Assembly (NCBI GenBank): GCA_022508565.1
Contig: JAFLUY010000004.1
Location: 47,454 to 111,453 of the forward strand
Source of the DNA: Erysipelotrichales bacterium
GTDB lineage: Bacteria; Bacillota_I; Bacilli_A; RF39; UBA660
Reading direction: 5' to 3'
Length of the DNA stretch: 64,000 bases
The notes below the pieces were generated by a model, which made no database searches, was not told the DNA's origin, and was given only the letters and a program-made list of their open reading frames with translations. The translations under genes and the position numbers were made by a program. Below, in pieces: positions 36,695-45,033 of this stretch. Within the stretch, counting starts at the first letter, position 1; each line of letters begins with the position of its first letter.

Positions 36695-37468
36695 ATGGAA
36701 CTAAAAAACATTGATAAGCCAATTAAAATATTTGATCTAGAAACAACTGGATTAGATAAGAAAAAAGATTCAATAATTCAATTTGCAGGAATTACAGTTG
36801 ATCCAAAAACCTGTAAAATAATAGATAGTTTAAATCTTTTGATAAAGCCAGAAGGAAACTATCAAATAACTTTAGGTGCATATTATAAACATAAAATTTC
36901 TCCACAAATTTTAGAGGATAAGTCAACATTTAGAGAATGCCATCAACAAATTTTAGATTTTTTTAGTGGAGATTTTGTTGTATTGACTTATAATGGACTA
37001 TCATTCGATTTAAACTTTCTATCTACAGAGTTCTCTAAAATTGGTGTGGATTTTTCTTTATTAGATAAAGATCTTTATGATTCATTTTTAATTGAGAAAT
37101 CTAGAAATGATCTTAGCTTAGAAGGAAGATTTAAACATTACTATGGATGTTCCATGGCAGAAAAAGGTTTAGTTGCACATAATGCTTTATCGGATGTCAA
37201 AGCGACATTTATGATATTTGTTAAAGAACAAGAAGAGTGTCCGTTTGGACCAGAAGAAGTACTTACTGAATGTAATACAATAAAACTTTGTGAGTTCGAA
37301 GGAGAAATTAAACCTTGTTTTACATTAGGAAAATATAGAGGAATTCCTTTAAATCTTATCTATGAAATTGATAAAGGATATCTTGAATGGGCTATCGGAG
37401 ACGGAAGTGCATTTTCTCCTTCTTGTAAAAAATATATAAAAGATTTTATTAAAAGTAAAGAAAATTGA
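36695..37468 (+). CDS. DEDDh-family 3'-5' exonuclease (DnaQ/epsilon-like)
   Basis: Exo I motif IFDLETTGL, Exo II motif VVLTYNGLSFDLNFL and Exo III motif HNALSDVKATF (H-x4-D). All three are in the canonical order and spacing. Confidence 0.85.
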   Translation: MELKNIDKPIKIFDLETTGLDKKKDSIIQFAGITVDPKTCKIIDSLNLLIKPEGNYQITLGAYYKHKISPQILEDKSTFRECHQQILDFFSGDFVVLTYNGLSFDLNFLSTEFSKIGVDFSLLDKDLYDSFLIEKSRNDLSLEGRFKHYYGCSMAEKGLVAHNALSDVKATFMIFVKEQEECPFGPEEVLTECNTIKLCEFEGEIKPCFTLGKYRGIPLNLIYEIDKGYLEWAIGDGSAFSPSCKKYIKDFIKSKEN

Positions 37469-37469
37469 T

Positions 37470-37832
37470 ATGACAGTTCAAGATATTATGGCAGATATCA
37501 TTGAAGAAATGAAAACTGCAAAAGAAAATAATGATGATAAAAAATTTAGATATTTTCAACATCTATATAAATTAGGCTTTGAAAGTTTTGAATCTTTTAT
37601 TGATTTTTTAGAAGAAAATAGAGAAAATGAATATCTTAATAATTTATGTTCTAAATATTTAGAAGAAAAAATAGATTATAAACAATTATTTGAGGAAGAT
37701 ATTAGAAATAAAAAAATCAATAATATTATTCTATCTAAAACTATAAATTATTACATTTCTGAATATCCTGAATTAGAAGAAAATTATATTAGAGAAAAAA
37801 TAAGAGAAAAAGTCTATGAAAAAAATAAGTGA
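37470..37832 (+). CDS. small hypothetical protein (120 aa, acidic/helical)
   Basis: ATG 2 nt after the upstream stop. E/K-rich. No motif. Confidence 0.5.
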   Translation: MTVQDIMADIIEEMKTAKENNDDKKFRYFQHLYKLGFESFESFIDFLEENRENEYLNNLCSKYLEEKIDYKQLFEEDIRNKKINNIILSKTINYYISEYPELEENYIREKIREKVYEKNK

Positions 37833-38112
37833 AATACTAAATAATTCTTTAAAAGAAGGTAATGAAGAGTTAGTAGACGATCAATGGATTAATGATGAAA
37901 AACCTGTAAAGACAATGGATGGTCGTCAAGCTATCATTACTGATATCAATATGAAAGAAGTCCCAAATATTCTTATTGGTCAAGTAAGATGGCAAACAAA
38001 ATTATTAAATTATGAATGGCAGGATGATGGAGTATGCATTAAAGCTACAGATCAATACGGCAATCCAAAGAAACCTACTGAAGCAGATTATTTAGTAAAA
38101 GATTTTGTATAA
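37816..38112 (+). CDS. small hypothetical protein (98 aa)
   Basis: ATG overlaps the upstream gene end by 17 nt. No motif. Confidence 0.45.
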   Translation: MKKISEILNNSLKEGNEELVDDQWINDEKPVKTMDGRQAIITDINMKEVPNILIGQVRWQTKLLNYEWQDDGVCIKATDQYGNPKKPTEADYLVKDFV

Positions 38113-38149
38113 ATTAAAAAATATAAATATAACAAAAATACCAAACAAG

Positions 38150-42372: not shown

Positions 42373-43050
42373 ATGGCAATAATAAACAATAATAGAAATA
42401 ATGATAAGGTTACTGTAGGTCAAGTAATGGACCTGAAGAAGCTGACTCATAAGATTTATACTAAAGAAGAGATGAAGCAATTCTCTATGGAATTGGCTAT
42501 CAATACTCATCCTCTTGCTAAGAAGCCTACTATACTTCGGTCAAAACTTGCGTATGCTCAGTTACTTAAAGAATTAAAACCTAATAAAAAATATCTAATT
42601 CCGGGACAATTATCTTGTTTTTTTTATCAAGATCCTAAATTTAAAGAAGAATTAAACTATTTTGATCAATTTCCGTTAACATTATTTTGTGGTATCACAA
42701 GAACCGATGATGGAAACATCCGAGAAATAGGTTTCAATCTTCATTATTTTCCTCCACACGCTAGAGCCAAAGTTTTCCTATCAGTTTACAATACTTTCAA
42801 ACATTATTTTTGGGATAATTTTAATGAAGTTAATGGAAAACCAAATATGATGATTTCATATAATGCTTTAATGAGACTTTGTAAAAGAAATGCAAAAATT
42901 GCCTTCGGAATTCGCATGTATATTCCTGTATTAAGAGGTACTACTTATGTTATTCCAACAAGACTTTTTTCAACAGCTTTTTATACCGAAGGAAGATTTT
43001 CAGGAGCTACTTTAATGCAAATTCAATCATTTTGGAGAAGGTACAGATAA
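42373..43050 (+). CDS. hypothetical protein (225 aa)
   Basis: Clean ATG ORF with an AT-rich 37-nt leader. Basic protein. No motif recognised. Confidence 0.55.
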   Translation: MAIINNNRNNDKVTVGQVMDLKKLTHKIYTKEEMKQFSMELAINTHPLAKKPTILRSKLAYAQLLKELKPNKKYLIPGQLSCFFYQDPKFKEELNYFDQFPLTLFCGITRTDDGNIREIGFNLHYFPPHARAKVFLSVYNTFKHYFWDNFNEVNGKPNMMISYNALMRLCKRNAKIAFGIRMYIPVLRGTTYVIPTRLFSTAFYTEGRFSGATLMQIQSFWRRYR

Positions 43051-43106
43051 AATTGAAATTAATATTTTAAAAATCCTATTTTAATATTAATTTATTTTTT
43101 ATCTAT

Positions 43107-43961
43107 ATGCAAGACAAAACATCTGCTATCATTATTCCTATTTATGAGGATGAATTCGATATAATTATTAAAACTTCATTAGATTCATTAATTAAAAATT
43201 CTTCGGAATATACTAAAAAACAATATCCAATTATATTGATCGGTCCAAATAAATTGAAACAACGTATTGAACAAGTTTCTGATTATTTGAAAAAATCTTT
43301 TTCTGTATCATCTAGATTATATGAAGATTATTTTTTTGAAAGTACAGCTTCATATTCAAGACTTTTAAAAACCCATGATTTTTATTTAGGATTTAAAGAT
43401 TTCGATTATATATTGATTTATCAAACTGATTGTTTAATGATCCATGACAATCTAAAAATATGGATAAATAAAGGATACGATTATATCGGAGCTCCTATTT
43501 TATCTCAAAATGCTGGTTGGAAAAAAGTACCTATTGTAGGAAATGGAGGATGCTCATTACGTAAAATTTCATATTTCTTAGATGTTACAAATCCGAAAGG
43601 AAAATTCTTAACTAAATATCAAGAAAAATTAGATAAAGAAATTTCTGGTAGAGGTCCAGAAGGATATAAAGACTTTGAAGATTTATATTTTGCTGAATTG
43701 ATCGCTTATTATTATGGAATGGATAAGCCTAAATACTTAGAATCTTTAGATTTCGCTTTTGATATGAATCCTGATGTAGCAAAAACTCTTAAAAAAGATT
43801 CTAAATCTTTTCCTGATTTTTTACATGCTTATGATAAGAATCTTAGATTTTATAATACTATTAATCAATTTAAAGAAAATATAAATGATTATGAAGTATT
43901 ATATAATTTTTGTGAAAAGAAATATCAAGAATTACATAAATACTATCAAACCGATTTATAG
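43107..43961 (+). CDS. putative nucleotide-sugar-dependent transferase-like protein (GNGG motif)
   Basis: DYILIYQTDCLMIH...YDYIGAPIL...VGNGGCSLRKISYF. The GNGG[FC]SLR motif is characteristic of a poorly characterised family of putative glycosyltransferase-like proteins. Assignment is by recollection of the motif only. Confidence 0.4.
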   Translation: MQDKTSAIIIPIYEDEFDIIIKTSLDSLIKNSSEYTKKQYPIILIGPNKLKQRIEQVSDYLKKSFSVSSRLYEDYFFESTASYSRLLKTHDFYLGFKDFDYILIYQTDCLMIHDNLKIWINKGYDYIGAPILSQNAGWKKVPIVGNGGCSLRKISYFLDVTNPKGKFLTKYQEKLDKEISGRGPEGYKDFEDLYFAELIAYYYGMDKPKYLESLDFAFDMNPDVAKTLKKDSKSFPDFLHAYDKNLRFYNTINQFKENINDYEVLYNFCEKKYQELHKYYQTDL

Positions 43962-44016
43962 GATTAAACAAATCTATATTTTTAAATAACATAATAAAGA
44001 AAATAAATTATTAAAA

Positions 44017-45033
44017 ATGAAGAAATTTTCTCAACTTATAGAAGAAAGTGCATTAACTCAATTAGCACAAAAAACAGATAATGGGGCTGGAACAACTAAT
44101 AAATATACTCCAATAAATAATATTATAACAAATGTAAAGAATTTTTTCGGAGCCACATATAATATTGTTGTTACTGAAGGTCCCGGAAATTCTGTCGAAT
44201 TGCGTTGTTCAAGATGGATAAATGTTGATGAAGCATATAAAGATTTAAATGGAATCGAGGTTGCTAGAAAAACTATTACATCATATATTTCTGAACAAGG
44301 ATTAGATTCAATGAAACTCATCCAAGAAGGTCAAAGAATTTTAGCAGTTTTTTACGCCTCAGATATTAAAGATGATGCTACTAAAACTTTTAATAAGCTT
44401 CCAGACGCTTCAGAATATACTGATTCTCATGCGAATGAGAACAGAAATTTTCAAACTTGTTTGATATATACTGATTCTTATGCAAATGAATCTTTTGAAT
44501 ATGAAATTTTAGACCAAAAAACTATCGGTGAAGGTAAAGAAGATGATGATGAAATGGAAGATACCACTCAAAAAGAACTTCGTGAATTGATTGTAACAGA
44601 CAATAAAGTTAAATCCGCAGAAAAATTTGCAGAACTTGTAGCACAAACAATCGATCTTCCTTCAGAATATTATTGGAAAGCTGTTAAAGACAAAGACGGA
44701 AATGAATCAATCGCTTTACGCCATAAAACTGAAAAACGTAGACCGTTTGGAAAGAAGGCTGAAATTATTGATTCTGTTATAAATATTTATGGCACTGGAG
44801 AAGAAGCAATTTGGGTAGATGGATATGATGATATCGATAATATGCCAGATGATATGAAACGGCTTATTGAGAATATTCTCCAACTCCTCGGAGCTGAAAA
44901 AACTCCTGATATTTGTGTATATTCATTAAAAGAAACTGATGATGACGATGACGAAGAAGATAAACCAAAGGCAACTATTGGTGCCGGGTTAGCGGATGAT
45001 TCTTCTGAAGACGATGATGAAGATGATATTTAA
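44017..45033 (+). CDS. highly acidic protein with poly-D/E C-terminal tail
   Basis: Acidic clusters EGKEDDDEMEDTTQKE and a C-terminus ETDDDDDEEDKPKATIGAGLADDSSEDDDEDDI. Last gene before the bidirectional terminator. Confidence 0.6.
   Translation: MKKFSQLIEESALTQLAQKTDNGAGTTNKYTPINNIITNVKNFFGATYNIVVTEGPGNSVELRCSRWINVDEAYKDLNGIEVARKTITSYISEQGLDSMKLIQEGQRILAVFYASDIKDDATKTFNKLPDASEYTDSHANENRNFQTCLIYTDSYANESFEYEILDQKTIGEGKEDDDEMEDTTQKELRELIVTDNKVKSAEKFAELVAQTIDLPSEYYWKAVKDKDGNESIALRHKTEKRRPFGKKAEIIDSVINIYGTGEEAIWVDGYDDIDNMPDDMKRLIENILQLLGAEKTPDICVYSLKETDDDDDEEDKPKATIGAGLADDSSEDDDEDDI

Follow-up and report, generated by a model that had tools for sequence, protein, structure and literature searches.

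The 64,000-nucleotide stretch analysed here (the window) is part of a 377,382-bp contig (ENA ERZ27293317) that belongs to a 377-kb AT-rich huge phage, a distant relation of T4, and this report concerns a run of 12 open reading frames (ORFs) on its plus strand, O1–O12, located at positions 36695–45033. The run constitutes two conserved operons, O1–O4 and O5–O12, and on balance the evidence favours a reading in which the second is a late operon, two of whose products, the ADP-ribosyltransferase (ART)-fold protein O8 and the acidic protein O12, are packaged into the head through a short N-terminal leader like the capsid-targeting sequence of T4, trimmed, and ejected. In the initial annotation the run was described as an accessory island of early host-takeover and anti-defence genes; the present analysis re-annotates it as a conserved late and core region, in which homologues of T4 gp2 and gp4 are identified.

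As first described, the 12 ORFs are compactly arranged, with a coding density of 0.95, and are divergent from a 454-aa gene on the minus strand. Neighbouring ORFs are separated by -23 to +56 nt, with a single exception of 188 nt. An intrinsic terminator at 39251–39280 (plus strand), consisting of a 12-bp stem followed by UUUUGGUUU (-18.2 kcal/mol, z -4.56), folds better than every shuffled sequence and divides the run, which therefore forms two transcription units, O1–O4 (36695–39229) and O5–O12 (39418–45033). The second unit is followed by the strong bidirectional terminator already reported, at 45063–45092, which it shares with a convergent 1217-aa gene; the 13-bp stem is bordered by runs of A and T, and its energies in the two directions are -17.8 and -19.0 kcal/mol, with z of -6.5 and -5.9.

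The two units are preceded by different promoter-like elements. A motif TTATTTTTA(A)TATATA is found 16–37 nt upstream of eight large flanking genes in the window, always in the correct orientation, and a similar ('class A'-like) element, TTATTTTTAAACTATA, with two mismatches to TTATTTTTAATATATA, is located at 39308–39323 (plus strand), 94 nt upstream of O5. Clear copies of the motif precede the gp4-gp2-DUF5672 operon in a related 380-kb phage contig (L004; related loci are given L numbers) and the O12 orthologues in L004 and L006. The element ahead of O1, TACTATATTA ('class B', of the CTATATT type; 36663–36672, plus strand), lies 22 nt upstream of the gene; evidence for it is weak, and the exact 10-mer is also found inside coding sequence. 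CTATATT-related elements are present ahead of the exonuclease operon in L004 and L009 and of the Metallophos and dUTPase genes in L006. From these elements we infer that O5–O12 may be co-regulated with the virion genes, and that O1–O4 may be regulated otherwise. A σ70 promoter scan was uninformative, with 115 sites found and 116.9 expected. The T4 late-promoter octamer TATAAATA is marginally enriched, with 39 copies window-wide against 27.8 expected, mostly within coding sequence; one copy, at 39390–39397, follows a 10-bp hairpin (-10.3 kcal/mol, z -5.6) in the O5 leader region, the two together occupying 39361–39397 (plus strand).

For every one of the 12 ORFs there is a homologue in one or more related metagenomic phage contigs, so by homology all are real genes, and the earlier remark that several have no recognisable homology was overstated. 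The 380-kb relative has its orthologues of O1, O3, O4, O5, O6, O7, O8, O10, O11 and O12 within about 10 kb, with changed order and orientation, and the gene order of the window is kept in closer relatives. The block has a G+C content (GC) of 0.25–0.29, the same as its flanks, with no compositional break. Because 10 of the 12 genes recur in this way, the order is kept in closer relatives and the GC is that of the flanks, the block is part of the conserved core genome, organized in two operons, and not a mobile accessory island.

Two products of the second operon are homologues of T4 morphogenesis proteins. O7 (40892–41365, plus strand) matches phrog_218 at 7.4e-36 and PF08722 at 6e-17, above the cut-off, and tblastn finds 2,558 phage records, many of them labelled head completion or head closure. 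The motifs of the PD-(D/E)xK class to which the initial annotation likened it are intact (E52, P90-D91 and E105-V-K107) and agree with the fold published for T4 gp4 (PMC1189080); by profile O7 is a member of the gp4 head-completion family. O10 (42373–43050, plus strand), which had been overlooked, matches phrog_429 at 4.7e-18 and the precomputed family PF26869, Phage_T4_gp2, and aligns by tblastn to gp2 of RB43 and relatives (28% identical, 99% of the query covered, E 3e-9); an IMG/VR scan with O10 gave nothing. By these matches O10 is a homologue of T4 gp2, the DNA-end protector. The gp2 homologue lies less than 1 kb from the gp4 homologue in the window, in L004, L006 and L010, and in the isolate Chryseobacterium phage MA9V-1. 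In T4-like viruses genes 2 and 4 belong to the morphogenesis core, and gp2 of T4 shields the ends of the packaged DNA against RecBCD (PMC2993671). The statement that no gene of the run other than the lysis genes is structural thus fails on O7 and O10.

The two lysis-type genes are located at the start of the same operon. O5 (39418–40137, plus strand) is predicted to be a glucosaminidase-type peptidoglycan hydrolase and endolysin candidate (PF01832, 4.3e-8, 34.3 bits with a cut-off of 30.2), has a hydrophobic N-terminal segment at residues 5–23, and has orthologues in L004 and L010. O6 (40151–40891, plus strand) is a membrane protein with a transmembrane segment at residues 22–40. Its matches to DUF6549 and DUF6808 are weak; its L004 orthologue matches PF20186 and PF20647, neither of which is marked as weak. 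O6 adjoins the lysin in the window, L004 and L010, and this adjacency across several relatives suggests a lysis pair, with O6 as the probable partner, as was first supposed.

The order lysin-O6-gp4-O8-O9-gp2-O11-O12 is paralleled in T4 by 4, 2, 3, 1, 57A, 57B, ipI ... e, ipIII. Both regions hold gp4 and gp2 homologues, an endolysin, and proteins with a leader of the form MKT-aromatic-x-x-aromatic-I-x-E, all on one strand and divergent from baseplate or tail genes. They differ in that homologues of gp3, gp1 and gp57 are missing here, that in place of T4 e there is a glucosaminidase accompanied by a membrane protein, and that the block has additional genes for the ART-fold protein, the DUF5672 protein and O9; the identity to T4-type proteins is 28–45%.

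In the T4 capsid-targeting sequence, residues 4 and 7 govern targeting and residues 8 and 10 processing, and the gp21 protease cleaves after L/I-X-E (PMC9026906). The N-terminus of T4 IPIII, read from the T4 genome, is MKTYQEFIAE; O8 begins with MKTLKKYIYE and O12 with MKKFSQLIEE, and both leaders consist of about 10 residues, are hydrophobic at positions 4 and 7, and end in L/I-x-E. Among the 223 ORF N-termini of the window and seven loci the pattern is found eight times with 0.07 expected, an enrichment of about 100-fold at N-termini that is inflated because the pattern was defined after O8 and O12 had been seen. The eight belong to at least five unrelated families, and as a control the same pattern picks ipIII (full) and ipI (partial), and no others, among 24 T4 ORFs. 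As in T4 IPI, IPII and IPIII, a ten-residue leader, hydrophobic at 4 and 7 and with I-x-E at 8–10, stands on otherwise unrelated bodies (PMC9026906, PMC3012670). The differences from the T4 internal proteins are that O12 is far larger, acidic and composed of two domains, and that its family has a conserved Glu at position 9.

Leaders of this kind are also found outside the window. Short forms of the O8 family begin with the leader, and many forms with an N-terminal extension of 40–80 aa begin with a copy of their own, such as MKSLADYLKE or MKSLDKYIQE. Phage MA9V-1 encodes a 269-aa hypothetical protein between gp4 and gp2 (MA9V1_146, L001 8759–9568) that begins with MKNFFSFINE...DNGNP. The leader alone aligns to the O12 profile, and the body is unrelated; a prohead core protein serine protease is annotated in the same record a few kb downstream. 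In L008 an ORF at 6050–6646 has a partial leader (MKSLSEFL) and a weak match to SprT-like zinc proteases (1e-4, below the cut-off). This variety hints that the leader-bearing proteins might be functionally diverse.

O8 (41369–42055, plus strand, 228 aa) has three close homologues in a word-indexed search and 223 remote ones in an exhaustive HMMER scan. None of 81 aligned members consistently matches a Pfam or PHROG family, tblastn of O8 against isolate phages gave no match, and the single sequence found nothing significant in the PDB. The AlphaFold2 model built from the family alignment has a pLDDT of 94.7 and a pTM of 0.87, and a Foldseek search with it places Tpt1/KptA first (E 4e-5, probability 1.0) and then DarT1 (probability 0.99), with TM-scores of only 0.3–0.4; the ART fold proposed in the initial annotation is thereby supported. 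The O8 profile matches DarT1 weakly in the PDB (E 0.0027), and also Tpt1, through a Y-H-x-T...I...G-L motif. Conserved in the family are Y112-H113-x-T115, G127-L-R, R137, R142 (Lys in O8 itself) and an invariant D191. The His of Y112-H113-x-T115 is present in 80 of the 81 sequences and aligns to YH(G/F)T of Tpt1 and DarT, that is, to the NAD+-binding His of the first ART motif. At the third motif, which would supply the catalytic acidic residue, the DarT-equivalent position has no conserved Glu, and the invariant D191 is located nearby. The conserved residues of the N-lobe are E10, L12, Y75 and E/D92-P93, with neither Arg nor His among them.

The Tpt1/KptA Pfam model matches none of the 81 members, and the Arg-His-Arg-Arg catalytic tetrad of Tpt1 is not conserved. 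Nor is O8 placed in the DarT family by Pfam, the weak match to the DarT1 chain being the sole DarT signal from the sequence profile. Since it has no Pfam or PHROG membership and the Tpt1 tetrad is not conserved, O8 is by its predicted structure an ART-fold protein of an undescribed family, neither Tpt1 nor DarT. It shares with both a two-lobed model, a predicted C-terminal NAD+-binding ART lobe and the Y-H-x-T...I...G-L pattern, and differs in the lack of Pfam membership and Tpt1 tetrad, in having an invariant Asp191 with conserved Arg137 and Arg142 instead, and in the N-terminal lobe. Another parallel is T4 Alt, a head-packaged and ejected ADP-ribosyltransferase (PMC9026906): both are ART-fold proteins of T4-related phages, and in both a gp21-type cleavage motif closes a short N-terminal segment. 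Alt, however, belongs to the R-S-E clade, whereas the branch nearest to O8 is that of Tpt1/KptA and DarT; O8 is also much smaller and has no detectable sequence similarity to Alt.

Several genomes contain two O8 paralogues. L008, on a 50.7-kb contig, has two at 8001–10150 and 12346–13245, and an ADP-ribosylglycohydrolase (PF03747, 4.5e-36) is encoded two genes away from the first. In L004 a single 357-aa ORF (7613–8686), directly upstream of the gene for an S1-like protein, combines an O8-type domain (hhalign 99.95%) with a C-terminal O3 domain (58% identity). L010 has an extra 330-aa paralogue (2655–3647) between the counterparts of O4 and O5, exactly at the position of the terminator-bearing gap of the window, in which the conserved Y-H-x-T is replaced by Y-R-F-I. 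The glycohydrolase neighbour in L008 supports ADP-ribose chemistry for the O8 family, and the context in relatives suggests a link of O8 to O3 and the S1-like protein.

O12 (44017–45033, plus strand) is, as stated initially, an extremely acidic protein that ends the run (pI 4.33, net charge -35), and has at least 148 homologues with 35–45% identity. AlphaFold2 predicts two confident alpha/beta domains (residues 30–140 and 180–305), with a disordered, acidic linker between them and a tail that is likewise acidic. The acidic density is highest in the disordered linker and tail, and the folded domains are acidic too (pI about 4.75). The suggestion that O12 resembles a DNA mimic found no backing, as the structure has no significant neighbour, DNA mimic or other, in the PDB or BFVD, and the charge is densest in the disordered segments. 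Searches with O12 against isolate phages (tblastn), against the PDB (as single sequence and as profile) and in an IMG/VR scan also gave nothing. At the N-terminus the family conserves M1, K2, S5 and E9, with hydrophobic residues at 4 and 7; all 76 sequences that align at position 9 have the Glu. A further conserved motif, [IL]170-x-E172, is located in the disordered linker. A terminase small subunit was considered and rejected, as two members match such a PHROG (1.2e-5) and 76 others do not, no terminase large subunit is encoded nearby in any locus, and the proteins are rich in acidic sequence of low complexity. Nor is a Pur-alpha-like or single-stranded DNA-binding protein (SSB) supported, with Foldseek probabilities of at most 0.69 over 42–88 columns.

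Under the reading favoured here, operon 2 would be transcribed late, and O8 and O12 would be loaded into the prohead by means of the leader, trimmed after I/L-x-E by a gp21-type protease, and ejected along with the DNA. After ejection, O8 would modify a host or nucleic-acid target by ADP-ribosylation, in the manner of T4 Alt, which is itself packaged cargo. A wider proposal, put forward tentatively as less likely than not, is that the leader MK[ST]L..YI.E marks diverse, fast-evolving, head-packaged and ejected proteins in huge gut phages, including an undescribed ART family, and that O8 and O12 are injected effectors that reach the cell together with the DNA and modify targets in the host or in nucleic acid. 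The capsid-targeting sequence has so far been a T-even feature, used also as a tool to package foreign proteins; if the proposal is true, it gives a simple sequence rule for predicting the injected proteins of uncultured huge gut phages, with the O8 family and O12 as the first candidates.

Several observations weigh against delivery in the virion. O8-family genes in relatives are often located amid DNA- and RNA-metabolism genes and not beside gp4 and gp2. No gp21-type protease, portal or capsid gene is present in the approximately 84 kb of contig examined, so that a matching protease is assumed. The N-terminus of O3, in operon 1, is similar to the leader, and in O8 the leader is helix 1 of a confident fold, with E10 and L12 conserved as the start of the domain in the long forms; the resemblance could therefore be structural instead of a sorting signal. 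The promoter motifs, moreover, rest on few sites, and the O5 copy is both imperfect and far from its start codon.

The strongest competing explanation, which we find plausible though rather unlikely, takes the resemblance as coincidental or structural, an amphipathic N-terminal helix in an AT-rich start context, and regards O8 and O12 as ordinary intracellular proteins. O8 would then be a nucleic-acid or RNA-end ADP-ribosyltransferase, or a repair enzyme, acting with O3 and the S1-like protein, and O12 an acidic-tailed DNA-binding or chaperone protein. The fusion of an O8-type domain to O3 upstream of the S1-like gene in L004 speaks for this, as do the O8 homologues of L007 and L008 amid NrdD/NrdG, DEAD helicase and exonuclease genes, the similar beginning of O3, and the position of the leader within helix 1. 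For O12, acidic C-terminal tails are typical of SSBs, and the top Foldseek matches, though weak, are Pur-alpha and SSB. These matches are not significant, however, and the I/L-x-E motifs conserved within the disordered linker of O12, the separate leader copy of the long O8 homologues, and the enrichment of the leader at N-termini on unrelated bodies, including that of an isolate phage at the gp4-gp2 position, argue against this explanation.

We consider it improbable that the run is an early-expressed accessory cassette, in which a nuclease, an exonuclease, an RNA binder, an ART and a DNA mimic would serve host shut-off and counter-defence from the cytoplasm right after infection. The element ahead of O1–O4 is unlike that of the flanking large genes, and similar ones precede DNA-metabolism genes in relatives; the ART fold of O8 is confirmed, O12 is indeed very acidic, and T4 gp2 counters RecBCD (PMC2993671). 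Against this, the gene set is that of a conserved core genome with the GC of its flanks, O12 has no structural match to a DNA mimic, and O5–O12 stand between two terminators, behind an element resembling that of the flanking large genes, and in a synteny that fits late or structural genes, so that the designation as an early region is not upheld for them. Profile searches moreover assigned part of the run to housekeeping roles, with O7 and O10 as T4 genes 4 and 2, O5 and O6 in lysis, and O1 of the DnaQ/ExoX type. Of the host-takeover and anti-defence module, what stands is most of the fold assignments and some genes plausibly directed at the host, namely gp2, the ART-fold protein and the S1-like RNA binder; the island does not. 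Should O8 and O12 target the host, the evidence favours their arrival as virion cargo over expression from an early cassette.

That O8 is a divergent Tpt1/KptA RNA 2'-phosphotransferase for tRNA repair, as reported from jumbo phages (PMC9503650), is the least probable alternative and very doubtful, for although Tpt1/KptA are its best structural matches, the TM-scores are low, no member matches the Tpt1/KptA (PTS_2-RNA) model, a consistent Pfam family or any PHROG, the conserved N-lobe residues offer no Arg or His for the Arg-His-Arg part of the tetrad, no RNA ligase or 2H phosphoesterase is seen nearby, and several paralogues per genome suggest a fast-evolving family and not a housekeeping repair enzyme.

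The two remaining genes of operon 2 are O9 and O11. O9 (42033–42335, plus strand) encodes a 100-aa protein without a family match, with counterparts in the same place in L010 (62%) and L009 (36%). O11 (43107–43961, plus strand) had been called a GNGG-motif transferase-like protein; the GNGG is present at residues 145–148, there is an N-terminal IIIPIY segment, and the family is DUF5672 (PF18922, 8.3e-34, 117 bits with a cut-off of 24.4), on which nothing usable was found in the literature. The O11 orthologue adjoins gp2 in L004. As a single sequence O11 found nothing significant in the PDB, and tblastn against isolate phages gave a single match.

Operon 1 begins with O1 (36695–37468, plus strand, 257 aa), which was correctly identified as a DEDDh 3'-5' exonuclease and is of the DnaQ/ExoX-like type (PF00929, 4.6e-20, 73.2 bits with a cut-off of 24; phrog_192, 1.7e-31; ExoX-like_C weak). 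Its best NCBIfam matches are DnaQ/epsilon and ExoX models, every one under the equivalog cut-off. All catalytic residues are present (D14-x-E16, the Asp of YNGLSFD, and H162-x-A-x-x-D167), and orthologues with 44–80% identity are found in L004, L009 and L010. O2 (37470–37832, plus strand), a 120-aa acidic protein, has the lowest GC of the block, 0.19, no family match in Pfam, PHROG or NCBIfam, and 39% identity to its positional equivalent in L010. O3 (37816–38112, plus strand) is a small conserved domain of 98 aa with 58–68% identity in L004, L008, L009 and L010, and is always located immediately upstream of the S1-like gene.

This gene, O4 (38150–39229, plus strand), encodes a predicted multi-S1/OB-like RNA-binding protein of 359 aa, or 374 aa if a TTG at 38105 is used, with at least 453 homologues, 45–50% identical, in phage contigs of up to 473 kb; JGI calls some of them 'ribosomal protein S1'. 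The multi-S1 character noted earlier is borne out, since 30 of 41 family members match PF00575 and NCBIfam ribosomal S1 models span residues 57–320 (E 6e-10). O4 itself reaches 20.2 bits for PF00575, under the cut-off of 22, a clear S1 domain is seen only at the C-terminal repeat, and the top match of its profile in the PDB is a ribosomal S1 homologue; the single sequence gave nothing significant in the PDB, and tblastn no match among isolate phages. Because the scores for the ribosomal S1 models are far under the equivalog cut-offs (37.9 bits against 624, and 28.5 against 368), O4 is judged to be an S1-repeat protein and not a true ribosomal protein S1 (rpS1). By its domains it can be grouped with the 'possible rpS1' proteins that Al-Shayeb et al. 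(2020, PMC7162821) reported from huge phages and that are likewise multi-S1-like proteins from genomes above 200 kb whose genes have no obvious Shine-Dalgarno sequences; O4 differs from them in its low ribosomal S1 scores and in the small O3 gene that always precedes it. In an infected cell, DNA ends and mRNA or translation would be the targets of the products of operon 1.

At the nucleotide level the block has no match among isolate phages (megablast). By protein, Tenacibaculum phage PTm1 and Chryseobacterium phage MA9V-1, both Bacteroidota myoviruses whose head genes are of the T4 type, are the nearest isolates. BACON and DUF6549/DUF6808 domains are present in relatives, and the start codons of the window genes are not preceded by Shine-Dalgarno sequences. 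The host of the phage is probably a member of the Bacteroidota. O12 is deposited at NCBI as 'MAG: hypothetical protein J1F35_03620 [Erysipelotrichales bacterium]', and one relative is labelled 'Clostridia bacterium'. The Erysipelotrichales label is probably a binning artefact, and contigs of huge phages seem to be binned into bacterial metagenome-assembled genomes.

Scans for tRNAs and Rfam families gave no hits in the window, and intergenic DNA makes up 5% of it. Within a 2232-aa gene on the minus strand (2886–9584) the GC is 0.405 at positions 6001–8000, compared with about 0.29 elsewhere, a local compositional anomaly. One repeat domain (phrog_25468, up to six stretches, E 3e-68) occurs in multiple copies in three large proteins, encoded at 23227–26721 (minus), 26755–29553 (minus) and 51122–52723 (plus), which by this shared domain are probably fibre or adhesin paralogues on both flanks of the block. 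A Peptidase_G2/pre-neck-appendage-like protein and a GT2 glycosyltransferase are encoded at 49383–51001 (plus) amid large tail-type genes. A 3105-aa gene starting at about 61957 (plus) runs past the window end at 64000 and is preceded by an exact TTATTTTTATATATA at 61905–61919; because it covers that stretch, the ORFs at 62577–63152 and 63639–63941, both on the minus strand, are probably spurious.

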